A DNA stretch of 64,000 bases from Escherichia phage JY01: sequence record OR995200.1; one strand, given 5' to 3'. The notes beneath the pieces were generated by a model that was given only the letters and a program-made list of their open reading frames with translations, did not search any database and was not told the DNA's origin. A program made the position numbers and the translations under genes. Below, piece after piece: positions 17,684 through 61,920 of this stretch (within the stretch, counting starts at the first letter, position 1; every line of letters starts with the position of its first letter).

Positions 17684-17790
17684 TTTATTCTCCTTAGCAA
17701 GCTTTAATCAAAAGATATAAACAAACTAACATAACTGCTGCCATAATATAAGGTGCGAACATTTTCTTTTCTCCATTAGTTTTGATAGGG

Positions 17791-17823
17791 TAATAGTATC
17801 ACACTACTACCCTGCTGTAAACT
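17791..17823 (-). promoter_or_regulatory. T4-type early promoter module
   Basis: GTTTAC at 17818-17823 with conserved -10 and leader. Confidence 0.5.
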
Positions 17824-18256
17824 ACTTTTTGAAAGTTTTTCGCAAAAGTTCAATGATTCGATCTACATTGTTTTCGTCAACGATGCAGTGAATTTTTGTT
17901 ACGCCAGAAATCGTGTCTTCGCCTTCATCTTCAGAAATCGGTTCTTTATACTCGCGAAAGCAATAAAATTCGTCTTCGCAAATTTCTGAAAGTCTATCAC
18001 AAAAGTAAAAATGTTTTCCATTGGCGCATTCAATATGTTTTACTGCTTTAAATCCATTATTAAAGAAAACTTCTTTAACTTCAAACCATCCACCATTTTC
18101 TTTGATAATTTTAACTATCGATCCATTAGAACGTGGGCTATGACTAATAAATGCGTCAATGAGACTTGGAACAAGTTCATACTTTTTACCGATATACATT
18201 TTCTTTTCCTCATTTTTAACGGGGTTATTGATAGCCCCTTGATAATTATTGTTCAA
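17822..18256 (-). CDS. hypothetical Cys-rich protein
   Basis: 144-aa ORF; the true start may be the internal MYIGKKYEL. Confidence 0.4.
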
Positions 18257-18473: not shown

Positions 18474-18512
18474 ATTATTTTCCTCTTTGATCATCAGCAG
18501 TATTGCCGATAG

Positions 18513-18545
18513 TTGTATAGTACCATGGAAGGACAAGGATGTAAA
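18513..18545 (-). promoter_or_regulatory. T4-type early promoter module
   Basis: GTTTAC at 18540-18545, -10 TATAGTACC, conserved leader CAACTATCGGC. Confidence 0.55.
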
Positions 18546-18571
18546 CCGTTTTGTGAAAAAATTTTTTGAAA

Positions 18572-18596
18572 TAAAAAAGGGGACCTCTAGGGTCCC
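18572..18596 (-). terminator. intrinsic terminator after gene 32
   Basis: Hairpin GGGGACCCUAGAGGUCCCC followed by UUUUUU on the minus-strand transcript. Confidence 0.65.
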
Positions 18597-21893: not shown

Positions 21894-24800
21894 ATGGCCG
21901 AGATTAAAAGAAAGTTCAGAGCAGAAGACGGTCTGGACGCAGGTGGTGATAAAATAATCAACGTAGCTTTAGCTGATCGTACCGTAGGAACTGACGGTGT
22001 AAACGTTGATTACTTAATTCAAGAAAACACAGTTCAACAATATGATCCAACTCGTGGATATTTAAAAGATTTTGTAATCATTTATGATAACCGCTTTTGG
22101 GCTGCTATAAATGATATTCCAAAACCAGCAGGAGCTTTTAATAGCGTACGATGGAGAGCGTTACGCACTGATGCAAACTGGACAACTGTTTCGTCAGGAC
22201 CTTATCAATTAAAATCAGGCGAATCGATTTCAGTTAACACCGCAGCGGGTAATGACATTACATTTACTTTGCCATCTTCTCCAATTGATGGTGATACTAT
22301 CGTTCTCCAAGATATTGGAGGAAAACCTGGAGTTAACCAGGTTTTAATTACAGCTCCGGTACAAAGCATTGTAAACTTTAGAGGTCAACAAGTACGCTCA
22401 GTACTAATGACTCATCCAAAATCACAGATAGTTTTAATTTTTAGTAATCGTCTGTGGCAAATGTATGTTGCTGATTATAGCAGAGAAGCGGCAGTTGTAA
22501 CACCGGCAAGTCTTTATCAAGCGCAATCAAACGATTTTATCGTGCGTAGATTTACTTCTGCTTCAGCAATTAATATTAAACTTCCAAGATTTGCTAATCA
22601 TGGCGATATTATTAATTTCGTTGATTTGGATAAATTAAATCCACTTTATCACACAATTGTTACCACATACGACGAAACGACTTCAGTACAAGAAGTTGGA
22701 ACTCATTCCATTGAAGGTCGTACATCTATTGATGGTTTCTTGATGTTTGATGATAATGAGAAATTGTGGAGATTGTTTGACGGGGATAGTAAAGCACGTT
22801 TACGCATTATAACGACTAATTCTAATATTCGTCCAAATGAAGAAGTCATGGTATTTGGCGCAAATAATGGAACAACCCAAACAATTGAACTTCAGCTTCC
22901 AACTGATATTTCTATCGGTGATACTGTTAAGATTTCCATGAATTATATGAGAAAAGGACAAACAGTTAAAATCAAAGCTGCCGGTGAAGATAAAATTGCT
23001 TCTTCAGTTCAATTGCTGCAATTTCCAAAACGTTCAGAATACCCACCTGAAACTAAATGGGTGACTGTTCAAGAATTAGTTTTTAATGGCGAAACCAATT
23101 ATGTTCCAGTTTTACAGCTTGCTTATATCGAAGATTCCGATGGAAAATATTGGGTTGTACAGCAAAACGTTCCAACTGTAGAAAGAGTAGACTCTTTAAA
23201 TAATTCTACTAGAGCAAGATTAGGCGTAATTGCTTTAGCTACACAGGCTCAAGCTAATGCTGATCTAGAAAATTCTCCACAAAAAGAATTGGCAATTACT
23301 CCAGAAACGTTAGCTAATCGTACTGCTACAGAAACTCGTAGAGGTATTGCAAGAATAGCAACAACTGCGCAAGTAAACCAGGATACCACATTCTCTTTTG
23401 CTGATGATATTATCATCACTCCTAAAAAGCTGAATGAAAGAACAGCTACTGAAACTCGCAGAGGTGTTGCTGAAATTGCTACGCAGCAAGAAACTAATGC
23501 AGGAACCGATGATACTACAATCATCACTCCTAAAAAGCTTCAAGCCCGCCAGGGTTCTGAGTCATTATCTGGTATTGTAACTTTTGTATCTACTGCAGGT
23601 GCTACTCCAGCTTCTAGCCGTGAATTAAATGGTACGAATGTTTATAATAAAAACACTAATAATTTAGTTGTTTCGCCAAAAGCTTTGGACCAGTATAAAG
23701 CTACGCCTACTCAACAGGGTGCAGTAATTTTAGCAGTTGAAAGTGAAGTAATTGCTGGTCAAAGTCAAGAAGGATGGGCAAATGCTGTTGTAACGCCAGA
23801 AACGTTACACAAAAAGACATCAACTGATGGAAGAATTGGATTAATTGAAATTGCTACGCAAAGTGAAGTTAATACAGGAACTGATTATACTCGTGCAGTC
23901 ACTCCTAAAACTTTAAATGACCGTAGAGCAACTGAAAGTTTAAGTGGTATAGCTGAAATTGCTACACAAGTTGAATTCGACGCAGGCGTCGACGATACTC
24001 GTATCTCTACACCATTAAAAATTAAAACTAGATTTAATAGTACTGATCGTACTTCTGTTGTTGCTCTATCTGGATTAGTTGAATCAGGAACTCTCTGGGA
24101 CCATTATACCCTTAATATTCTTGAAGCAAATGAGACACAACGTGGTACACTTCGTGTAGCTACACAAGTTGAAGCTGCTGCAGGAACATTAGATAATGTT
24201 TTAATAACTCCTAAAAAGCTTTTAGGTACTAAATCTACTGAAGCGCAAGAAGGTGTTATTAAAGTTGCAACACAAACCGAAACTGTTGCTGGAACATCGG
24301 CAAATACTGCTGTATCTCCAAAAAATTTAAAATGGATTGTGCAGAGTGAACCTACTTGGGCAGCTACTACTGCAGTAAGAGGCTTTGTTAAAACTTCATC
24401 TGGTTCAATTACATTCGTTGGTAATGATACAGCCGGTTCTACTCAGGACTTAGAGCTATACGAGAAAAATAGCTATGCAGTATCACCATACGAATTAAAC
24501 CGTGTATTAGCAAATTATTTGCCATTAAAAGCAAAAGCTGCAGATAGTAATTTATTGGATGGTCTAGATTCATCTCAGTTCATTCGTAGGGATATTGCGC
24601 AGACGGTTAATGGTTCACTAACCTTAACTCAACAAACGAATCTGAGTGCCCCTCTTGTATCATCTAGTACTGCTACGTTCGGTGGATCAGTTTCAGCAAA
24701 TAGTACATTAACTATTTCTAATACTGGAACAGCAACTCGATTGATTTTTGAGAAAGGACCTCAAACTGGAACAAACCCAGCCCAAACGATGACTGTTAGA

Positions 24801-25763
24801 GTGTGGGGAAATCAATTTAGTGGGGAATTAGATACAACACGTTCTACCGTATTTGAAGTTAGTGATGAAACATCTAGTCATTTTTATTCTCAGCGCAATA
24901 AAGCCGGAAATATAACATTTAATATCAACGGTACAGTAACACCGATAAATGTTAATGCTTCAGGAACATTGAATGCAAATGGCGTAGCAACATTTGGTAA
25001 TTCAGTCACTGCAACTGGTGAAATTATTTCTCGAAGCGCAAATGCTTTCCGTGCTATTAACGGAAATTACGGTTTCATTGTTCGCAATGATGGATCAGTA
25101 ACGAATTTTATGCTTACTGCATCGGGTGATCAGACTGGTGGATTTAATGGATTACGCCCATTAGCTATTAATAATGCATCTGGCCAAGTAACGATTGGTG
25201 AAAGCTTAATCATTGCCAAAGGTGCTACTATAAATTCAGGTGGTTTGACTGTTAACTCGAGAATTCGTTCTCAAGGTACTAAAACATCTGACTTATATAC
25301 ACGTGCGCCAACATCTGATACTGTAGGATTCTGGTCAATTGATATTAACGATTCAGCTACTTATAACCAGTTCCCAGGTTATTTTAAAATGGTTGAAAAA
25401 ACTAATGAAGTGACTGGTCTTCCATATTTAGAACGTGGCGAAGAAGTTAAATCTCCTGGTACACTGACTCAGTTTGGTAACACACTTGATTCGCTTTACC
25501 AAGATTGGATTACTTATCCAACAACGCCAGAAGCGCGTACCACTCGCTGGACACGTACATGGCAGAAAACCAAAAATTCTTGGTCAAGTTTTGTTCAGGT
25601 ATTTGATGGAGGTAACCCTCCTCAACCGTCTGATATCGGTGCTTTACCATCTGATAATGCTACAATGGGTAATCTTACTATTCGTGATTTCTTACGAATT
25701 GGTAATGTTCGCATTATTCCTGACCCAGTGAATAAAACTGTTAAATTTGAATGGGTTGAATAA
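21894..25763 (+). CDS. 34: gp34 long tail fibre proximal subunit
   Basis: 1289 aa (same as T4 gp34); internal repeats of the ...TATETRRG(I/V)A.IAT... type; TATAAATA late promoter upstream. Confidence 0.95.
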   Translation: MAEIKRKFRAEDGLDAGGDKIINVALADRTVGTDGVNVDYLIQENTVQQYDPTRGYLKDFVIIYDNRFWAAINDIPKPAGAFNSVRWRALRTDANWTTVSSGPYQLKSGESISVNTAAGNDITFTLPSSPIDGDTIVLQDIGGKPGVNQVLITAPVQSIVNFRGQQVRSVLMTHPKSQIVLIFSNRLWQMYVADYSREAAVVTPASLYQAQSNDFIVRRFTSASAINIKLPRFANHGDIINFVDLDKLNPLYHTIVTTYDETTSVQEVGTHSIEGRTSIDGFLMFDDNEKLWRLFDGDSKARLRIITTNSNIRPNEEVMVFGANNGTTQTIELQLPTDISIGDTVKISMNYMRKGQTVKIKAAGEDKIASSVQLLQFPKRSEYPPETKWVTVQELVFNGETNYVPVLQLAYIEDSDGKYWVVQQNVPTVERVDSLNNSTRARLGVIALATQAQANADLENSPQKELAITPETLANRTATETRRGIARIATTAQVNQDTTFSFADDIIITPKKLNERTATETRRGVAEIATQQETNAGTDDTTIITPKKLQARQGSESLSGIVTFVSTAGATPASSRELNGTNVYNKNTNNLVVSPKALDQYKATPTQQGAVILAVESEVIAGQSQEGWANAVVTPETLHKKTSTDGRIGLIEIATQSEVNTGTDYTRAVTPKTLNDRRATESLSGIAEIATQVEFDAGVDDTRISTPLKIKTRFNSTDRTSVVALSGLVESGTLWDHYTLNILEANETQRGTLRVATQVEAAAGTLDNVLITPKKLLGTKSTEAQEGVIKVATQTETVAGTSANTAVSPKNLKWIVQSEPTWAATTAVRGFVKTSSGSITFVGNDTAGSTQDLELYEKNSYAVSPYELNRVLANYLPLKAKAADSNLLDGLDSSQFIRRDIAQTVNGSLTLTQQTNLSAPLVSSSTATFGGSVSANSTLTISNTGTATRLIFEKGPQTGTNPAQTMTVRVWGNQFSGELDTTRSTVFEVSDETSSHFYSQRNKAGNITFNINGTVTPINVNASGTLNANGVATFGNSVTATGEIISRSANAFRAINGNYGFIVRNDGSVTNFMLTASGDQTGGFNGLRPLAINNASGQVTIGESLIIAKGATINSGGLTVNSRIRSQGTKTSDLYTRAPTSDTVGFWSIDINDSATYNQFPGYFKMVEKTNEVTGLPYLERGEEVKSPGTLTQFGNTLDSLYQDWITYPTTPEARTTRWTRTWQKTKNSWSSFVQVFDGGNPPQPSDIGALPSDNATMGNLTIRDFLRIGNVRIIPDPVNKTVKFEWVE

Positions 25764-35152: not shown

Positions 35153-35191
35153 TTTCTAATCTCCGTAATTCTGTATCAGTAGTTGATAGTT

Positions 35192-35223
35192 GTATAGTAC
35201 CACAGTATGCTTTGGTTGTAAAC
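35192..35223 (-). promoter_or_regulatory. early promoter upstream of motA
   Basis: GTTTAC at 35218-35223, -10 TATAGTACC, conserved leader. Confidence 0.55.
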
Positions 35224-35249
35224 CGTTTTGTGAAAAAAATTTTTGAAAT

Positions 35250-35276
35250 AAAAAAAGGGAGAGCCGAGGCTCTCCC
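35250..35276 (-). terminator. intrinsic terminator after gene 52 / motA.1
   Basis: Hairpin GGGAGAGCC-UCG-GCUCUCCC followed by UUUUUUU. Confidence 0.65.
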
Positions 35277-38301: not shown

Positions 38302-38325
38302 TTTCTGTTCCTCCGTAGTTGATAG

Positions 38326-38359
38326 GGTAATAGTACCACGGAAGAACAGTCTTGTAAAC
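38326..38359 (-). promoter_or_regulatory. T4-type early promoter module
   Basis: GTTTAC at 38354-38359 with conserved -10 and leader CAACTACGGAGG. Confidence 0.55.
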
Positions 38360-38543
38360 AACTTTTTAAAAATATTCGTAATAAATGTGAATACCAATCA
38401 CCACTGTTGAAACCTGTGCAACCCACCACGCACAAGCAATAAGTACAGAATTCAAAATTTTCATAATAACCTCATCACAAAAGTAAATGTTAAACAAATT
38501 AATGGAATACTAATTAACCAAACGAAACACCACCATAATGAAC

Positions 38544-38807: not shown

Positions 38808-38832
38808 TTTCCGCTCCTCCGTAGTTGATAGT

Positions 38833-38865
38833 TGTATAGTACCACGGTCCTTGTGGTATGTAAAC
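38833..38865 (-). promoter_or_regulatory. T4-type early promoter module
   Basis: GTTTAC at 38860-38865, -10 TATAGTACC, conserved leader. Confidence 0.55.
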
Positions 38866-38881
38866 TGTTTTATGAAATTTT

Positions 38882-39439
38882 TTAAATAGAAAGATACCAT
38901 CCGTTGTAGTTGCTTTTTCTTACAACCTTACGAAGGTCTTCTCTATCACCGATGAATTTCGGAGTGTACTGGATGACACCTGGATGAATTTCTTTAGTGT
39001 TGAATATAATTATACAGTCAGCGACTTGATGATTTAGAATGGGCCCTAAATTTATTCCAGAACCATATGGATACTCTCCGCTGCATCCCGTTGTTACCGA
39101 AATCCAACGCGAGTCAGTTTGATGTGTTTTGACTTCTACACGAAGCCCGCAATATTTTGGATGCGCTAAAACATCCCATGCATACGTGTACGGATCATCG
39201 ACATTTTCTTGGCCTTTATTGACATATCCGCTTAGCCAATCTGCCACAAAAAACTCTGCGTACACCGCGATACGGCATCTTTCGATAACTTCTGCTTTAT
39301 CCTGGTTCGGGTTTTGTTTTAAAGAGTATCTTGCTGTATCAGCAATTTTGACCTTCATTTCACTAGTCAAGTCACTGTTCGATAGGGTAAATGTCGGAAT
39401 CTGAAATAGTCTCTGCAAACCCGGATTTGTTTTCTGCAT
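38882..39439 (-). CDS. denB: endonuclease IV (DenB-like)
   Basis: 185 aa, same size as T4 DenB, immediately upstream (in map order) of rIIB. Confidence 0.7.
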   Translation of the reverse strand: MQKTNPGLQRLFQIPTFTLSNSDLTSEMKVKIADTARYSLKQNPNQDKAEVIERCRIAVYAEFFVADWLSGYVNKGQENVDDPYTYAWDVLAHPKYCGLRVEVKTHQTDSRWISVTTGCSGEYPYGSGINLGPILNHQVADCIIIFNTKEIHPGVIQYTPKFIGDREDLRKVVRKSNYNGWYLSI

Positions 39440-39480
39440 TTAAACTTTCCTTTATGTCGGAATCATAATTTCTCTTAAAA

Positions 39481-39510
39481 CAAAAGGGCCGAAGCCCCTT
39501 ATTTTATTTG
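39481..39510. terminator. bidirectional terminator hairpin
   Basis: GGGCCGAAGCCC stem-loop flanked by A-run on one side and T-run on the other. Confidence 0.55.
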
Positions 39511-39698
39511 AATTGTGCAATTCTTTTTTCTAAACACTCTGCGTAAGATTTCATTGAGATGAACTGTGAAAGTAGAAGTTCTTGCTCAACTGCACTAACT
39601 GTTAGAAACTTTGTGCTTTCTAAAAATTTGCTCAGTGCATTAATTTTGAGCATTAATTGATCGTATTCTTCTTTTACTCGTGCTTGATAACCTAACAT
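39504..39698 (-). CDS. hypothetical protein (denB.1 position)
   Basis: 64-aa ORF flanked by tetraloop hairpins. Confidence 0.45.
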   Translation of the reverse strand: MLGYQARVKEEYDQLMLKINALSKFLESTKFLTVSAVEQELLLSQFISMKSYAECLEKRIAQFK

Positions 39699-39726
39699 AA
39701 TTTTCCTTAGTTAAGGGCCGAAGCCC

Positions 39727-40665
39727 TTATTTAAATTGTTCAGTAACGTCTTCAACTACTTCGTATTGGCAGGTACGCATTTTAGCGTCGTTGTAATCAA
39801 TCGGAATTGATACTACATCACGTGGATGTACTTTAACTTTTACAACTCGGCTGGTTGAACTGCCAAAGTGACGAATATAAGATTTAGAACACACATGCAG
39901 ACCACGAGAACAAGTTTGTGTATCATCATCATTCACACGAGTACGTGGCATTTTAACTACTTTACCCGGACTGTTATCAAAGGTGTTTGAGTGACAGTCA
40001 AAGTAGTTGTCACGAACTACTTTCCAAGCATAGAAGTAACCATCTTCGGTGATTTCAATATCGTTTGCTACCAAGAAATCAAAGAGTCGAGATACCGCTT
40101 TTTGGCTTGGGTTTTCCAGCAGATTTTCCAAGAACGGAAAATAAAATTCAAAGTTTTCGCCTTTTTCCATCGAGTCAAGAATACGATCAACCAAACCAGA
40201 CCGCAATTCAATATTTTGATAGAACAAGCTTCCACCTTCAATTCGAACATCACCGGAAATATATTTTTCAACAGCGCGACGAACATTAATTTTTTGTGCC
40301 GCTTCTTCCAACTTATCTGCTACAAGCAGATTAAGAATTTCCTGGAAGTTTGAATGAGTATTAGGAGTTGCGTTATAAGTTACACCGTCAACAGTAATTG
40401 AAATGAATTTTTTAGAAGCATTCCAAATAATATCAGATTTAGCAACTGGAGCAATAGCTACATCGCTATTAACTTTAACTGTAATATCACCGCTAATAGT
40501 AACTTTAGGGCGTTTAGCTTCTTCAGCATTTTTCAAAACACGACGGATTGTGTCAACCGATACATCCTTCCAATAAGCTAATTCCTGCTGAGTGTAATTA
40601 CCGCTTGAATACAATTTAACAATTTCAGCTTGTTCGTTTTTGGTCAGGCATTTAATATTGTACAT
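39727..40665 (-). CDS. rIIB: rIIB protein
   Basis: 312 aa, same as T4 rIIB, adjacent to rIIA. Confidence 0.9.
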   Translation of the reverse strand: MYNIKCLTKNEQAEIVKLYSSGNYTQQELAYWKDVSVDTIRRVLKNAEEAKRPKVTISGDITVKVNSDVAIAPVAKSDIIWNASKKFISITVDGVTYNATPNTHSNFQEILNLLVADKLEEAAQKINVRRAVEKYISGDVRIEGGSLFYQNIELRSGLVDRILDSMEKGENFEFYFPFLENLLENPSQKAVSRLFDFLVANDIEITEDGYFYAWKVVRDNYFDCHSNTFDNSPGKVVKMPRTRVNDDDTQTCSRGLHVCSKSYIRHFGSSTSRVVKVKVHPRDVVSIPIDYNDAKMRTCQYEVVEDVTEQFK

Positions 40666-46757: not shown

Positions 46758-46852
46758 GTTATTTTCTGTATCAGTAGTTGATATTGATATAGTACCATAA
46801 TCAACTACTGATGTATATAGTTTTATGAAAAAATTTTAAACTTTATGCAAAT

Positions 46853-47272
46853 TTATGCTAAAGCTGCTTCGCACCATTTTTTAATTTGGAATTCAGGAAC
46901 TACCATGAACTGGCCTGCAAAAACAATATTGTAGAGCTTGACACCATCTTCTACCCAACGGTCCGAAATAAAACCAGCGACTTGATTCGTTGTCCATGGA
47001 GTTCCATCTGTTGCCGCCGCAATTGTGAATTTATGGTCTTTTACAACTAAAACTGAAGAACAAAGTTTCCATTTAAATGCGCTTTCTTCTGGCTCAATGA
47101 ACTGACTTGAGACATAACCAATGTTACCATCAGCGTCACGAACTTTAACCTCGTTACGACCAAAAACTGGATCACTTACAGAAAGAACTTCAACCAGCTT
47201 TCCTGCAACTTTAGAACGAGAAGCAACGGATACATATACGTAATCACCAGTAGAGAGATTTACAATATTCAT
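46853..47272 (-). CDS. paralog family member A (shared C-terminal domain)
   Basis: 139 aa; N-terminal ASRSKVAGKLVEV and C-terminal GFISDRWVEDGVKLYNIVFAGQF shared with the adjacent ORF. Confidence 0.55.
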   Translation of the reverse strand: MNIVNLSTGDYVYVSVASRSKVAGKLVEVLSVSDPVFGRNEVKVRDADGNIGYVSSQFIEPEESAFKWKLCSSVLVVKDHKFTIAAATDGTPWTTNQVAGFISDRWVEDGVKLYNIVFAGQFMVVPEFQIKKWCEAALA

Positions 47273-47281
47273 AATAATTCC

Positions 47282-47755
47282 TTAAGCTTTACGAGGAGAA
47301 GCATAACGAGTGATTTCAGATTCTTCAACAACCCGGAAGTCACCTAAGAATACGATATTGTAGAGCTTTTCACCATCTTCAACCCATTGGTCTGTGATGA
47401 AGCCACACATCCTATCAGTTTTACTTGGACCAGCGAAATCATCAATATAATCGAATTCTTCATCAGTTACAAATTCAACGCCTTTACACAACGCCCATTT
47501 AAATTGTGCATTAGACTCAGTGGATTCAACTTCTTCAACAGAAGCAAAATGAGAGCTAACACGAGTTTCCAGAAATTTAGGACTTACGTAAGCGTACTGA
47601 GTTTCAGTTTTTCCAGAACTAGGAATGATTCGAACTTTAACTTCTATAACACGACCAGTACCATTAGTACGAAGTCCTACCACTTCAACTAGACGACCTG
47701 CAGCTTTAGAACGAGATGCAGACGATACACGCTTAATTTCACCGATAGTAATCAT
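47282..47755 (-). CDS. paralog family member B
   Basis: 157 aa; ASRSKAAGRLVEV and GFITDQWVEDGEKLYNIVFLGDF motifs. Confidence 0.55.
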   Translation of the reverse strand: MITIGEIKRVSSASRSKAAGRLVEVVGLRTNGTGRVIEVKVRIIPSSGKTETQYAYVSPKFLETRVSSHFASVEEVESTESNAQFKWALCKGVEFVTDEEFDYIDDFAGPSKTDRMCGFITDQWVEDGEKLYNIVFLGDFRVVEESEITRYASPRKA

Positions 47756-57252: not shown

Positions 57253-57453
57253 ATGGTACAAAAATTAATGGCACTTGTTAATGCCATCAAAGGTAATAAG
57301 AAACGTATAGCTTTTACTATTTCTGCTATGGTAGGAATTTTACTCTGGAACTTTATTTTATCACCAATTGCAATTGCACATGGTGTTAATATTCCAGTAG
57401 TTACTCTTGATACATTTGTAGATTTAGCATTTGCTTTAGTTGGGTTAATTTAA
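57253..57453 (+). CDS. small two-helix membrane protein (plus strand, late-type promoter)
   Basis: 66 aa with two hydrophobic segments; strong SD AAGGAGGA 5 nt upstream; TATAAA-type late-promoter-like sequence upstream; convergent with gene 61. Confidence 0.45.
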   Translation: MVQKLMALVNAIKGNKKRIAFTISAMVGILLWNFILSPIAIAHGVNIPVVTLDTFVDLAFALVGLI

Positions 57454-58478
57454 ATCTTAGCATATTTAGATAACCGCATTTTAGCCATCAACCCCTGGGC
57501 AATATTATTTTTCATATATTCCATAATTTGTTCAGGGGTTGCACCTTCCTTTCTAATCATATCATTAACATCTTTTGATTTCCAGGGAGATTTATCCCAA
57601 AACATAACCCTTTCTCCTGCATCAACTAATTTAGTCATTCGCTTAATAGTGTCAGGATGACGAGGTTCATTATCTAAGACCCACACACGCCTATCTTTAA
57701 ATGGAACAACTTCTAGGTCTAATTGACCACCCGTAATAGCTATACCATTTTCAATAAAAAGTGAATCTATAGGTCCTTCTAAAACATATACATCACCATC
57801 TTTAACTCGTTCGACTCCATATATTTTTGTTGCCTCAGGATAAGCTTTGATGGTGATATATTTTTGAGGAGCATCTTTCTTTAATGCACGCCCTTGAAAC
57901 GACTCGGCTTTTCCATTAGCATTATAAATTGGAATAACAAGACGAGGCTCAGAAATTTCCTTTTTGTATGTTCCCGGTGCTATGCTATTAACTAATTTAG
58001 GCCATTCGGTTGTAAACCAAAGATATTTCCATTTATCCTTTGGAATACAACGAGCTTTTACATATTTTATAATTGGATGGTCTTCCACCAGTTTATCTAA
58101 TCTAACACATGACTGAAGAGATTTAATTATTTTCTTCTCAGGATGTTTAGGAAGTTCTTTAGGTTTTTCTACTGGACGACTTTTACCTTTTTCTTTTCTT
58201 ATTTCAAAGATATACTCACGATATAAATCAGGTTCAAACTCCTTTAAATATATTCCGATTGGTGCATGATAGTTACAGTTATAACAATGAATATTTCCTT
58301 CATTATTATCACCGTAATACCATCCACGGGCTTTATTCTGGTCGGTTTTTGAATCTCCACAAACAGGGCATCTAAACCGTAATTTAAAAGTTGAACTATT
58401 ATTTACTTGTGTGAATTTAGGTAAATGAGCTAATGCACGATACGCAAACTCATTATCAATCCAAGGTATTGATGACAT
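57450..58478 (-). CDS. 61: DNA primase
   Basis: 342 aa, same as T4 gp61; N-terminal zinc ribbon CPVCGD...CYNC. Confidence 0.95.
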   Translation of the reverse strand: MSSIPWIDNEFAYRALAHLPKFTQVNNSSTFKLRFRCPVCGDSKTDQNKARGWYYGDNNEGNIHCYNCNYHAPIGIYLKEFEPDLYREYIFEIRKEKGKSRPVEKPKELPKHPEKKIIKSLQSCVRLDKLVEDHPIIKYVKARCIPKDKWKYLWFTTEWPKLVNSIAPGTYKKEISEPRLVIPIYNANGKAESFQGRALKKDAPQKYITIKAYPEATKIYGVERVKDGDVYVLEGPIDSLFIENGIAITGGQLDLEVVPFKDRRVWVLDNEPRHPDTIKRMTKLVDAGERVMFWDKSPWKSKDVNDMIRKEGATPEQIMEYMKNNIAQGLMAKMRLSKYAKI

Positions 58479-58480
58479 TT

Positions 58481-58645
58481 TTACTCTTCTTTTTCTTTAG
58501 ATTCCTCTTTTTTCTTTTTAGGAATCTGTTCAGGACCTTTATTTACTACAGCGCCCGACGTTGTTCCAGTAGAGATATTTTCAGGATTACCACCTGAATC
58601 TCCAGCTACCATATCTTCTTTAATAAATTCTTTATATGTTTTCAT
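58481..58645 (-). CDS. small hypothetical protein
   Basis: 54-codon ORF MKTYKEFIKED...; below track cutoff; start lies in the 49-bp repeat. Confidence 0.3.
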   Translation of the reverse strand: MKTYKEFIKEDMVAGDSGGNPENISTGTTSGAVVNKGPEQIPKKKKEESKEKEE

Positions 58646-58646
58646 A

Positions 58647-59003
58647 TTAACCTCTATTCATAAAAGCATTAAAAATTTGGTCATCAATAGATGGAATAGC
58701 AACCTTTTCGGCATCATTTAGCAAATCATTAATTTCATCAGATAGCATAACACATGTGCCTTTATTTCCTGTAATTGTTACTGCGCAATTACGAACGTTT
58801 TCTTTATCAAATTTTAGGTTAATATTTTCGTAGTGAAAATCCTTTAATGCCGAATATATCTTTAAAATGAAATTGTCTTTTACTACAATAAACCCAACCT
58901 CACTATTAAAACGTGGTTCATGGAAACTGTAATAAACCTTTTCATCTATAAAATCGTATGAAATTTTTTCCATTTTTAAATATGAAAATTCAGAACTATA
59001 CAT
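58647..59003 (-). CDS. hypothetical protein (61.x)
   Basis: 118 aa; C-terminus IDDQIFNAFMNRG shared with the next ORF. Confidence 0.5.
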   Translation of the reverse strand: MYSSEFSYLKMEKISYDFIDEKVYYSFHEPRFNSEVGFIVVKDNFILKIYSALKDFHYENINLKFDKENVRNCAVTITGNKGTCVMLSDEINDLLNDAEKVAIPSIDDQIFNAFMNRG

Positions 59004-59004
59004 A

Positions 59005-59646
59005 TTAACCTTTATTCATAAAAGCATTAAAAATTTGATCGTCAATAGAAACTTTTACTTTAGGCTGTTCTTCAAACGGTAATTCATATCCACATATTAC
59101 AATTTTGTGATCAATATCAAAATACACAGAAGAAATATGATTAATGATGTTTTCAGTAAAGTCTAAATCAACATCAATATCTTTTTGACCACAGCCCAAA
59201 GGATAAATAATGCGAGTAATTCGATTATCTTTAACAAATATTCCACCGACATACTCTGTGCTGCGTTTAAAGTTTACACGTTTCCTAAATGAAAAATATT
59301 CAGGCTCTCTATGAGCTCGGCTCATAGGACACAACGAGTAACTAGAATAAGAGATGTCAAATCCTACACCTTCAATATGAGCCAACGCGTCATGATTAAA
59401 CCAATTATAATCGTACGCCAAATCCATTATATTGTAATATGTGAAAGGCACCGGATTAACATCATGCGTTGTACCTTTAAAATCTGCCCAGGCAACGATT
59501 TCGTTATCTTTAACAATTACAAAAATTGTGCCAATAAGATATCCACGGTTATTTTCATCAGGCGTTATATTATAACATTGTGCACCAGGAAATTTACCGT
59601 ATTTAAACGGTGGATTTTTGTGCATATAATAAATCATATTATTCAC
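59005..59646 (-). CDS. hypothetical protein (61.x)
   Basis: 213 aa; C-terminus IDDQIFNAFMNKG. Confidence 0.5.
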   Translation of the reverse strand: MNNMIYYMHKNPPFKYGKFPGAQCYNITPDENNRGYLIGTIFVIVKDNEIVAWADFKGTTHDVNPVPFTYYNIMDLAYDYNWFNHDALAHIEGVGFDISYSSYSLCPMSRAHREPEYFSFRKRVNFKRSTEYVGGIFVKDNRITRIIYPLGCGQKDIDVDLDFTENIINHISSVYFDIDHKIVICGYELPFEEQPKVKVSIDDQIFNAFMNKG

Positions 59647-59932
59647 CTGTGATTTCGGTTACGATATCTTTGTTATTAAAGTTTTTATCGCAATACAAAA
59701 CATAATTATACTGCATTACACCACCAGACTTAAGCTGTTTTTGCACTTCAGCTTTCATTTCAGGACGATCGCGCTCAACAATATTCATAATATCCGCTTC
59801 AATTTGAGTTTCAACTTCAGTCTGATCCGCAGTCATAGACCATTCACACAAATCTTTATCATAACCTGCCATAGCAGGCTGAGCAGCACAAGAAGCTAAA
59901 GCAAAAATTGTAGCAAAAATAAATTTTTTCAT
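59639..59932 (-). CDS. sp: Spackle periplasmic superinfection-exclusion protein
   Basis: 97 aa with cleavable signal peptide MKKFIFATIFALASCAAQPAMA; matches T4 Sp as recalled. Confidence 0.8.
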   Translation of the reverse strand: MKKFIFATIFALASCAAQPAMAGYDKDLCEWSMTADQTEVETQIEADIMNIVERDRPEMKAEVQKQLKSGGVMQYNYVLYCDKNFNNKDIVTEITGE

Positions 59933-59992
59933 GATAATCTCCTCAGTAGTTTATGTTTATATAGTATCTCAATTTCCAACAAAAGTAAATAG

Positions 59993-60250
59993 TTATTTTA
60001 AAACTTCTGCATAATCACATGTTACAAACTGTTTCTCTAACTTAACGATCTTACGAAAATATCTTTTGCATTGACGAATCTGCCTCTTCGTAGGACGTAC
60101 AGCAAACTTAATAAATTCCACTCGACCAAATGGAGGGCTTTCTTCTGCTGGAATATCTAACACCAATTCCCACGTTTCTGCAATAAGTGCTTTGAATTGA
60201 GTATTTTTCCTGACGTTATACGGAGTAGGTTTAAATAAAACAATATGCAT
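59993..60250 (-). CDS. hypothetical basic protein (61.4 position)
   Basis: 85-aa ORF. Confidence 0.45.
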   Translation of the reverse strand: MHIVLFKPTPYNVRKNTQFKALIAETWELVLDIPAEESPPFGRVEFIKFAVRPTKRQIRQCKRYFRKIVKLEKQFVTCDYAEVLK

Positions 60251-60251
60251 A

Positions 60252-60434
60252 TTATCCTCGGCAATCTACTTCACATACTTTCTTGTCATCAATGAAAGCT
60301 TTAACTAATGCTTTATTAACTTCAGCATATTGAGTAGTAGCCCATTGAACGTCATCTTTCATCATTGTGGTTTCTTTAGTAAACATGCTTTCATTCTTAA
60401 ACCACCCCATAAAAACTACCTTTACCAATTCCAT
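60252..60434 (-). CDS. dmd: Dmd antitoxin (inhibitor of host RnlA/LsoA toxins)
   Basis: 60 aa MELVKVVFMGWFKNESMFTKE..., as recalled for T4 Dmd. Confidence 0.85.
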   Translation of the reverse strand: MELVKVVFMGWFKNESMFTKETTMMKDDVQWATTQYAEVNKALVKAFIDDKKVCEVDCRG

Positions 60435-60462: not shown

Positions 60463-60493
60463 TACTATACCATAGTCTTGTCAGCTTGTAAAC
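60463..60493 (-). promoter_or_regulatory. early promoter upstream of dmd
   Basis: GTTTAC at 60488-60493 overlapping the gene 41 stop. Confidence 0.5.
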
Positions 60494-61920
60494 TAAAATT
60501 TTAATTCATTTGCCAAAGCATCTAACTGAGCTCGAGTGGATTCATTTCTTTGATAGCGATTCTGTTCAGCCTGAATCTGTTGTGAACCTGCTACTTCACT
60601 CACTTCAGTTGGAGTAGAATCTTGTTCAATTTCTACCCATTTTTGATTTCCTTTTTGAACACCCATCAAAAACTTATTCCACTTATTCTTATCACCATAT
60701 CGTGATTTGATTTGCTTAATGAGTTGTTGTTCAGCAGCTGCTAGCTCCTCGGTTTCAATGACCGCAAGCATAAAATCAGCTGTTGCTGGAAGACCAGCAG
60801 ATTCTGCAATATCACTCATGTTAACATCAGAAGAGTCCCAAGCTTGTTTACCGACCTGTGCTGCAGTCCAAAGAACAGTTTCGGTTTCAACAGCCAGAGC
60901 ACGTAATTCCTCTGCAATAGCTTTAACAGTTGTGTAACTATTTTCTGAATAAACTCTAATGCGACAAGATTTACAAATACCTAGATAGTCGACAATAATG
61001 ATCGTTGGAACAAAATTCTTTTTGAGCTTCAATTCATTCAAGAGAGACCTGAATGTATTAGCGTCTGCTCCACCAGTGGGATACTGTTTAACGATTAAAC
61101 GACCGAGAGTAGATTTCTCACGCCATTTTTCCATTTTTCCTTTATACTCGGCGTAAGAAATATGTCCATCATCAATATCGTCAAGAGAAACATCGAGCAT
61201 GTTAGCATCAATACGTTTAGCACAGACTTCTTCTGCCATTTCCATGGAGATATAAAGAACGTTATGACCAAGCTGTAAATAATCCGCTGCTAATGAACAA
61301 AGTCCTAATGATTTACCAACGTTAACGCCAGCCATTAAAACGTTCAGTGTTCCTGTCTCAGCTCCGCCTTTAGTAATTTTGTTTAGAATTCTGAGTTTAA
61401 ATGGAACTTTACGAGCTTTATTCATATAAGATAGCCAGCGTGCTTCGTAGTCATCCATCCAATCATGACCAACGTAGCTATCAAATGAAATTGATAATGC
61501 TTGACGCATGATATCAGGAATAGCACCTACATCTGGCATTTTCTTATTTCGTTTTTCCGGAGGAAGCTCAGCATTAGTTTGAATTTCGATTATTTTAGAC
61601 GTAGCATTAAACATCGCCCTTTGCTGAACATATTTTTCTGTTTCTTTTACTAACCAACTGTGGTCTTCTGGAGAATCGGCTAGTTTTGAAATAAGTGTTT
61701 TTACACCAGAATATTCTGTTTCAGTAAATGAACTATTTTCTAATGCAACATTTAACGCATTAATAGATGGAACGCTATGATACTCATTAACATGAGATTT
61801 AATTAATTTGAATGTATTTTTAGCTGGACCACTTTCAAAATATTCTGAATCCATATATGGCCAAACTTTTGAAAAATAAGCTTGATCAAATATAAGATGA
61901 GAAAGAATAATTTCTACCAC
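60493..61920 (-). CDS. 41: replicative DNA helicase
   Basis: 475 aa, same as T4 gp41; DnaB-family Walker A GVNVGKS. Confidence 0.95.
   Translation of the reverse strand: MVEIILSHLIFDQAYFSKVWPYMDSEYFESGPAKNTFKLIKSHVNEYHSVPSINALNVALENSSFTETEYSGVKTLISKLADSPEDHSWLVKETEKYVQQRAMFNATSKIIEIQTNAELPPEKRNKKMPDVGAIPDIMRQALSISFDSYVGHDWMDDYEARWLSYMNKARKVPFKLRILNKITKGGAETGTLNVLMAGVNVGKSLGLCSLAADYLQLGHNVLYISMEMAEEVCAKRIDANMLDVSLDDIDDGHISYAEYKGKMEKWREKSTLGRLIVKQYPTGGADANTFRSLLNELKLKKNFVPTIIIVDYLGICKSCRIRVYSENSYTTVKAIAEELRALAVETETVLWTAAQVGKQAWDSSDVNMSDIAESAGLPATADFMLAVIETEELAAAEQQLIKQIKSRYGDKNKWNKFLMGVQKGNQKWVEIEQDSTPTEVSEVAGSQQIQAEQNRYQRNESTRAQLDALANELKF

Follow-up and report, generated by a model that had tools for sequence, protein, structure and literature searches.

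The interval from sp (spackle) to the primase gene 61 has been called an anti-toxin-antitoxin island (PMC9391042), in which dmd acts against RnlA, tifA against ToxN and adfA against DarT. AdfA, described by LeRoux et al. 2022, binds and blocks the DarT1 toxin, and residue 164 (His or Arg) decides its activity (PMC11825919). T4 recombines at short homologies in this region: at the dmd-tifA locus of the same island, short direct repeats give amplifications and deletions under toxin-antitoxin selection (PMC9391042). In phages RB49 and phi1, repeats flanking accessory open reading frames (ORFs) excise them as mini-circles (PMC2839356); these repeats, the PeSLs, are intergenic and dispersed, and combine an early promoter, a stem-loop and a ribosome-binding site (PMC2839356; PMC4122927). 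Here we analyze a 64,000-nucleotide (nt) stretch of Escherichia phage JY01, sequence record OR995200.1 (henceforth the window), in which a 49-nt direct repeat is found at two successive gene junctions of this island: one at the end of adfA, and the other at the end of a small neighboring gene for a 118-amino-acid (aa) protein (henceforth ORF118). Linker-sequence models of phage mosaicism reportedly go back to Susskind and Botstein in 1978.

We interpret this repeat as probably being the shared 3' end of tandem members of one family, adfA and its 118-aa paralog: the C-terminal peptide that it encodes (henceforth the tail) would be under selection, and the same DNA would also serve as a substrate for recombination. 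Set beside the published AdfA, the locus is similar in that one of the two repeat-bearing genes is adfA itself, in the His allele linked to DarT1 binding, and in that ORF118, adjoining it in the island, exceeds the Pfam threshold and has both the tail and a VKDN motif; it is unlike the published system in that ORF118 often occurs without adfA, as in T2. As with the PeSLs, a small accessory ORF of a hyperplastic region lies between direct repeats placed at gene boundaries, relatives differ by exactly that unit and retain a single chimeric repeat (T4 versus RB33 and the metagenomic locus L054; locus L023 versus VR25 and VR20), and the excision and mini-circle mechanism would apply here too. Unlike the PeSLs, the 49-nt repeat is coding, is restricted to one locus, and has neither promoter nor stem-loop. 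The repeats at dmd-tifA are incidental microhomologies of 6-10 bp, whereas the copies reported here share 25-36 perfect bases, are conserved, and lie at paralogous gene ends. Finally, as in concerted evolution, a short, highly similar segment in diverged neighboring paralogs seems to resemble its counterpart in the same genome more closely than those of other lineages; here, however, the tract is only about 49 nt long and coincides with a selected peptide, such that selection and conversion are not fully separable.

The two copies, at 58643-58691 (copy 1; junction J2 in gene order) and 59001-59049 (copy 2; junction J1), match at 46 of 49 positions, in agreement with the three mismatches given by the first-pass annotation made from the letters alone. 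All genes of the locus are on the minus strand, and in gene orientation a copy reads TCT ATT GAY GAY CAA ATT TTT AAT GCT TTT ATG AAT ARA GGT TAA T ATG: the final 14 codons of a gene (SIDDQIFNAFMN[K/R]G, that is S-I-D-D-Q-I-F-N-A-F-M-N-[K/R]-G), the stop codon TAA, a single T and the ATG of the next gene. Copy 1 covers the last 14 codons of ORF118 (SIDDQIFNAFMNRG; 58647-59003) and runs to the ATG of gene 61.1 (54 aa; phrog_1823; 58481-58645), which has its start codon and ribosome-binding site in this copy. Copy 2 covers the last 14 codons of adfA (SIDDQIFNAFMNKG; T4 gene 61.2; 59005-59637) and runs to the ATG of ORF118. The annotation had counted 12 shared codons instead of 14; it was right that each copy sits at a gene junction, that both proteins share one end peptide, and that the stop, ribosome-binding site and next start codon lie inside each copy. 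The Shine-Dalgarno sequence of the downstream gene is embedded in the last two tail codons (AGAGGT in copy 1, AAAGGT in copy 2), with the terminal Arg-Gly codons of copy 1 supplying GAGG and the Lys codon of copy 2 weakening this to AAGG. The spacing of 358 nt is exactly the 118-codon ORF, its stop codon and one base. The sp/adfA junction is likewise TAA-T-ATG, resulting in three consecutive junctions of this geometry, and junctions of this Shine-Dalgarno-stop-start style are frequent in the window (10 matches versus 3 expected).

A degenerate pattern of the repeat, allowing up to 3 mismatches, finds no site in the 64 kb beyond the two copies, and has 0 matches in 100 dinucleotide-preserving shuffles. 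Among the window's 20 largest listed direct-repeat families of at least 30 nt, this repeat has the top identity (94%). Beyond the window, the 49-mer is present in 709 phage records at 907 places: among the matches listed, every record has one or two copies, all at this locus, with neither a third copy nor another locus. The single copy of T4 is identical to copy 1 of the window.

The upstream gene is adfA itself. Its product matches Pfam PF23813 over the full length (E-value 4.6e-136, 451 bits, with a cut-off of 27), it is annotated as 'anti-DarT factor A' in PV857777, and, counted from its ATG at 59637, it encodes 210 aa (the mechanical ORF call starts at a GTG at 59646). The protein has a His at the position equivalent to the R164H change of RB69, as checked against the published account (PMC11825919), and this DarT1-specificity residue is located in the C-terminal module. 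The predicted AdfA structure, of low confidence with a mean predicted local distance difference test (pLDDT) score of 68.5, features two modules with a similar order of secondary-structure elements, followed by a tail helix at residues 198-207, also with low pLDDT. In Shigella phage CT01 (L014:2001-2563) adfA is split into ORFs of 72 and 101 aa, the second of which also lacks the four residues PKVN directly ahead of the tail, so that the gene is either naturally disrupted or affected by a sequencing error.

ORF118 belongs to the RB32ORF033c type (phrog_4122, E-value 7e-73) and is present in 298 phage records; in the GenBank record of RB51 it has the note 'similar to gp61.2'. It matches PF23813 with 34.1 bits, above the cut-off of 27, but only over profile positions 113-211, and a BLASTP search aligns its residues 21-118 with residues 114-213 of AdfA (34% identity, E-value 5e-8). 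With the tails removed a weak signal remains: BLASTP still recovers 37% identity over 60 aa (E=0.016), the Smith-Waterman score against the C-terminal half of AdfA is reached by 4 of 2000 shuffles, and hhalign, on shallow alignments, returns an E-value of about 0.003. This residual signal is centered on a G-x-I-x-VKDN-x-I hairpin located 69-70 residues upstream of the tail in both proteins. In the alignment, ORF118 has an Asn where AdfA has the specificity His. Its AlphaFold2 model (mean pLDDT 83, and above 90 for residues 10-90) shows a globular domain of a five- to six-stranded β-sheet and two helices (residues 7-100), then a variable linker and a tail (residues 101-118, pLDDT about 55) with a helix at 106-115. 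Thus, in the predicted models ORF118 is a single module of 118 aa, versus the two modules of AdfA in about 210 aa. A Foldseek search of BFVD, with the tail included in the query, retrieves a 212-aa protein of AdfA size, its identity not confirmed (E-value 5.6e-5), while none of the solved structures compared with the ORF118 domain resembles it. ORF118 is probably an ancient and divergent relative, with a single module, of the AdfA C-terminal half, and not a recent fragment. Therefore, the repeat would be the stretch best conserved between two tandem paralogs and not a recombination scar. The annotation had held that full-length paralogy of the adjacent proteins would make the repeat simply part of a gene duplication: ORF118 appears to be homologous throughout to the AdfA C-terminal half, though with one module rather than two.

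The distribution of the tail was surveyed with a pattern back-translated from QIFNAFMN, scanned over IMG/VR and metagenomes, and with a profile searched against 1.84 billion proteins. Among T4-like phages it is always on the gene or genes directly after spackle; apart from T4-like loci, the back-translated pattern yields only chance matches inside unrelated ORFs in IMG/VR and the metagenomes. Two long repeat-protein matches from the profile search (P0009, which is repetitive and coiled-coil-like, and P0010) were discarded as spurious. The tail ends three protein families, AdfA, ORF118 and phrog_8539, in at least four T4-like genera, with distinct gene orders after sp: in Tequatrovirus, adfA and ORF118, each variably present, and then 61.1; in Mosigvirus, adfA followed by a 65-aa and a 155-aa gene; in Dhakavirus (JS98, IME08, IME341), phrog_8539 (144 aa), a tifA paralog (DUF7279), a 63-aa gene and 61.1; and in Gaprivervirus (VR7, VR20, VR25, ECML-359), phrog_8539, an ORF118 homolog and the same downstream genes as in Dhakavirus. 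Two further lineages, represented by P0008 and P0011 in other T4-like contigs, have a single ORF118-like gene directly after sp. The homolog from VR25, in the same slot, and the window ORF share 48% identity along the full length (E-value 1e-31), and those of P0008 and P0011 are 41% and 28% identical to the latter. The bodies of this family are down to 28-48% identity, whereas the tail is nearly invariant in the relatives found and its core DDQIFNAFM unchanged in all of them; the linker ahead of it varies in length, and the relatives from VR25, P0008 and P0011 all end in RG.

The phrog_8539 protein, found in JS98-type phages and annotated as 'gp61.2' in VR7, has no significant sequence similarity outside the tail to the AdfA and ORF118 families; Foldseek with the ORF118 model retrieves the VR25 representative (E-value 3e-4, template-modeling score 0.57). 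Across these genera the 49-mer joins the three upstream families to four downstream genes: 61.1, the ORF118 family, the TifA-like DUF7279 gene and the 63-65-aa gene. The DUF7279 gene after the tail junction in Dhakavirus and Gaprivervirus (L020:3722-3943; L017:5146-5367) encodes a 73-aa protein that is 40% identical (E-value 2e-13) to 61.4 (TifA) of the window; the island of these phages therefore holds a second tifA-like paralog. In the searchable literature, no mention was found of the conserved tail or of its presence on phrog_8539.

Comparisons between orthologs show what is conserved in the tail. The proportion of nonsynonymous sites that differ (pN) is 0-0.07 in the tail versus 0.07-0.36 in the bodies, while that of synonymous sites (pS) is 0.27-0.72 in the tail, similar to or above the bodies. 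Since the synonymous sites of the tail are as divergent as those of the bodies, the constraint is on the peptide. Between genera the 49-mer is 84-94% identical versus 66-70% for the nucleotide sequences of the flanking genes, and in distant lineages the peptide is retained with 6-10 of the 49 nucleotides changed. From these comparisons, the repeat appears to be kept mainly by selection on the peptide. The bodies evolve fast, as expected of counter-defence proteins, with a ratio of nonsynonymous to synonymous rates (dN/dS) of about 0.33-0.41 versus 0.07 for the primase.

Beyond this constraint, the two copies within a genome tend to be more alike than orthologs between genera. We counted identical codons at positions with the same residue and compared these with the chance expectation. 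Copies 1 and 2 of the window share 11 of 13 such codons (7.4 expected, P=0.026), and the pairs of RB33 (13/13, P=3e-4), Sf21 (12/13, P=0.004) and VR20 (12/13, P=0.003) behave likewise; the bodies of the window paralogs share 7 of 24 (12.1 expected). Against orthologs, the ORF118 tail of the window is at chance, with 7 of 12 codons shared with VR25 and 8 of 14 with the JS98 tail. Tail residue 12 is N in both Tequatrovirus paralogs and K in both Gaprivervirus paralogs. This shared residue and codon pattern would fit gene conversion, or co-adaptation to one partner. The tail end of the upstream gene also covaries with what follows it: it is NRG in all five single-copy Tequatrovirus and all seven Mosigvirus loci examined. 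Of the 16 two-copy Tequatrovirus loci, 15 have NKG or NRD there, and Gaprivervirus has KRD. A stricter rule, that the AdfA tail is NKG whenever ORF118 follows, is broken by slur13 and EC.W5-4 (NRD) and by ESh36 (NRG). The last of these, the 'UNVERIFIED' Shigella phage ESh36 (L069:459-849), is the only two-copy genome seen with an adfA tail in NRG; its 49-mers differ by one base, and its 118-aa ORF is frameshifted just ahead of the tail. The ESh36 tail may be a conversion product or an assembly error.

Variants lacking the intervening 358 bp, whose presence the annotation had suggested checking, do occur. T4 has adfA, a single copy of the repeat and 61.1, and differs from RB33 by exactly one 358-bp unit: RB33 and the metagenomic locus L054 have a T4-type adfA 3' end (291 of the last 300 nt identical, 97%) and a T4-type start of 61.1 (156-157 of 160, 98%), their own two copies differ by a single base, and the T4 copy equals the downstream copy of RB33. 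A second, independent presence/absence pair is seen among Gaprivervirus-like loci (VR25 and VR20 versus L023). By records, ORF118 is present in 298, adfA in 486, and the junction of adfA with the ORF in 157; about 141 records are T2-like, lacking adfA and having the ORF next after sp, and about 329, Mosigvirus included, have adfA alone. T2, described as being without an adfA homolog (PMC11825919), has ORF118 directly after sp, preceded by TTAGAGGTTAGTATG (AP018813; L024:2880-2900). We considered a simple microhomology deletion from the two-gene arrangement as the source of the T2 order, and the T2 junction sequence does not fit it; judging by the P0008 and P0011 lineages, which share it, the T2-like arrangement is more likely to be an older one.

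The tail might be a peptide for docking or interaction, its partner being shared by all the proteins that bear it, with the globular domains conferring target specificity. At the DNA level, two near-identical stretches 358 bp apart in a highly recombinogenic phage are thereby candidate substrates for crossing-over and conversion: unequal crossing-over within the repeat, which we infer to be the simplest link between the T4 and RB33 arrangements, would result in loss of the 118-aa gene, while gene conversion would keep the two copies more alike than orthologs in other genera. The repeat bounds a naturally present or absent unit and can plausibly recombine; beside the tail, it includes what would be a translational-coupling junction.

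The annotation proposed a modular junction left by duplication or illegitimate recombination; one such scar would come from a recent event copying the end of adfA onto an unrelated neighboring ORF. The similarity does fall abruptly from 94% nucleotide identity to none detectable at both edges, and the tail supplies most of the BLASTP score between the two proteins. Nevertheless, the tail is ancient, being present on three families in several genera: ORF118-family members with 28-48% identity in other genera bear it, often as the sole tail gene after sp, so the tail was in that family long before Tequatrovirus diversified, and the bodies retain in-register homology with the VKDN motif at a constant 69-70 residues from it. 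We thus regard a recent scar as very improbable. The annotation also suggested a cassette-shuffling site, and a dedicated DNA-level linker comparable to the PeSL of RB49 and phi1 gains something from the unit-exact presence/absence variants in two genera, from the joining of three upstream families to four downstream genes by one 49-mer, and from the mini-circles that document PeSL-mediated excision in T4-type phages (PMC2839356). Such a linker is improbable, if less so than the scar: the 49-mer is not dispersed and occurs once or twice per listed record at its one locus, lacks an early promoter and stem-loop, and is coding, with synonymous sites unconstrained between orthologs and the peptide invariant despite nucleotide drift. 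Comparably far-fetched to the scar is an embedded regulatory element, be it a MotA-type middle promoter (TGCTTTTA, 12 nt, TAATAT), an RNA structure or a translational operator. In its favor, both copies (58644-58668 and 59002-59026, minus strand) match a loose pattern of MotA box plus -10, which has 25 sites in the window versus 14 expected, and the Shine-Dalgarno and start codon of the next gene are inside the repeat. A MotA promoter as the cause of the conservation was rejected: taking as the criterion a conserved box (TGCTTtA) 11-13 bp upstream of a TAnnnT -10 and ahead of the gene start, there is only a loose match, the TGCTT box is broken by synonymous Ala changes (GCA in Mosigvirus; GCC in Dhakavirus and Gaprivervirus), and the predicted transcription start falls past the downstream ATG. 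When 109 nt around each copy and around the T4 junction were folded, the z-scores were -0.01 to 0.74, indicating no structure; no sigma-70-like promoter or intrinsic terminator was found at either copy, and the pS of the tail is not reduced.

A more radical version of the docking scheme, which we consider doubtful though less remote than these three, is that of a portable C-terminal docking peptide, (S/T)(I/V)DDQIFNAFM(N/K)R(G/D), that tethers otherwise unrelated, fast-evolving anti-defence domains (AdfA, the ORF118 family, phrog_8539) to one partner, with its coding sequence doubling as a homologous joint at which T4-like phages would gain, lose and swap these domains. The common partner might then be a replisome hub such as a sliding clamp, because Q-I-F-N-A-F may bear a loose resemblance to the QAMSLF-type clamp-binding motifs. 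If true, the tail coding sequence would be a coding counterpart of the PeSL shuffling elements. Returning to the tandem-paralog interpretation, several points weigh against it or its parts. The similarity of ORF118 to AdfA beyond the tail is weak, the tail alone providing 31 of the 35 BLASTP bits and scoring as much (31 bits) between AdfA and an otherwise unrelated protein. The conversion signal comes from about seven synonymous sites per copy and is marginal for the window pair (P=0.026); codon bias within a genus could yield part of it, and the D-D codon haplotypes track allele lineages, which is compatible with simple inheritance. Deletion and insertion in the T4/RB33 pair cannot be told apart from sequence, the direction being inferred. 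The amphipathicity of the tail was not significant in a simple hydrophobic-moment test, and a search of the accessible literature for the tail peptide gave no match.

The feature is ordinary in kind, and the paralogy was already hinted at in GenBank; what was not found in the searchable papers is the occurrence of one tail on three families in the island and the short paralog of T2 without adfA, which merit a modest follow-up. The slot after spackle contains a small family, of which one or two members are present; three configurations are common in the sequenced Tequatroviruses. The short paralog kept by T2 is a candidate inhibitor of another DarT-like or an unrelated toxin, and the invariant tail marking all these proteins suggests a shared partner or mode of action. 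From the repeat, laboratory stocks would also be expected to lose the 118-aa gene spontaneously. Engineered adfA deletions should spare the last 12-14 codons for the sake of downstream translation, as the published T4 deletion (residues 65-196) does.

Shigella phage SfPhi01 and Escherichia phage ECML-363 match positions 58300-59950 at 99.9% identity, and RB51, RB27 and RB68 match them at about 97%; this near-identity places the window in Tequatrovirus. With gene names by comparison with the annotated records of T4, RB51 and Ec_O157kw, the order on the minus strand is gene 41 (60493-61920), dmd (60252-60434), 61.4 or tifA (59993-60250), sp (59639-59932, its stop followed by T and the ATG of adfA), adfA, ORF118, 61.1 and the primase gene 61 (57450-58478). 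The T4-type gp61.1 matches the C-terminal third of the 155-aa Mosigvirus protein (L011:2879-3346) and positions 109-154 of the 156 of phrog_2086; from these alignments the short Tequatrovirus 61.1 looks like what is left of a longer gene, with the C-terminal part retained.

Other repeats in the window are of different kinds. A family of 58-76 nt with ATAGTACCAC...GTAAAC is found at 2407-2464, 17782-17839, 18508-18583, 35183-35260, 38319-38396, 38825-38902 and 46778-46855; on the minus strand its members look like T4 early-promoter regions, that is PeSL-type elements, which are known shuffling sites. Adjacent ORFs of 139 and 157 aa at 46853-47755 (minus strand), with nucleotide stretches 71-79% identical at a spacing of 429-495 nt, are another tandem paralog pair. 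On the plus strand, a 1289-aa ORF (21894-25763) is internally repetitive with a period of 108 nt (its peptide units include RRGVAEIATQ...TPKKL), and it may resemble gp34, the proximal subunit of the long tail fibre. A GGGGCCGAAGCCCC stem-loop with a T-run after it occurs in three copies, at 1586-1641, 39471-39526 and 39700-39737, which are probably shared intrinsic terminators.

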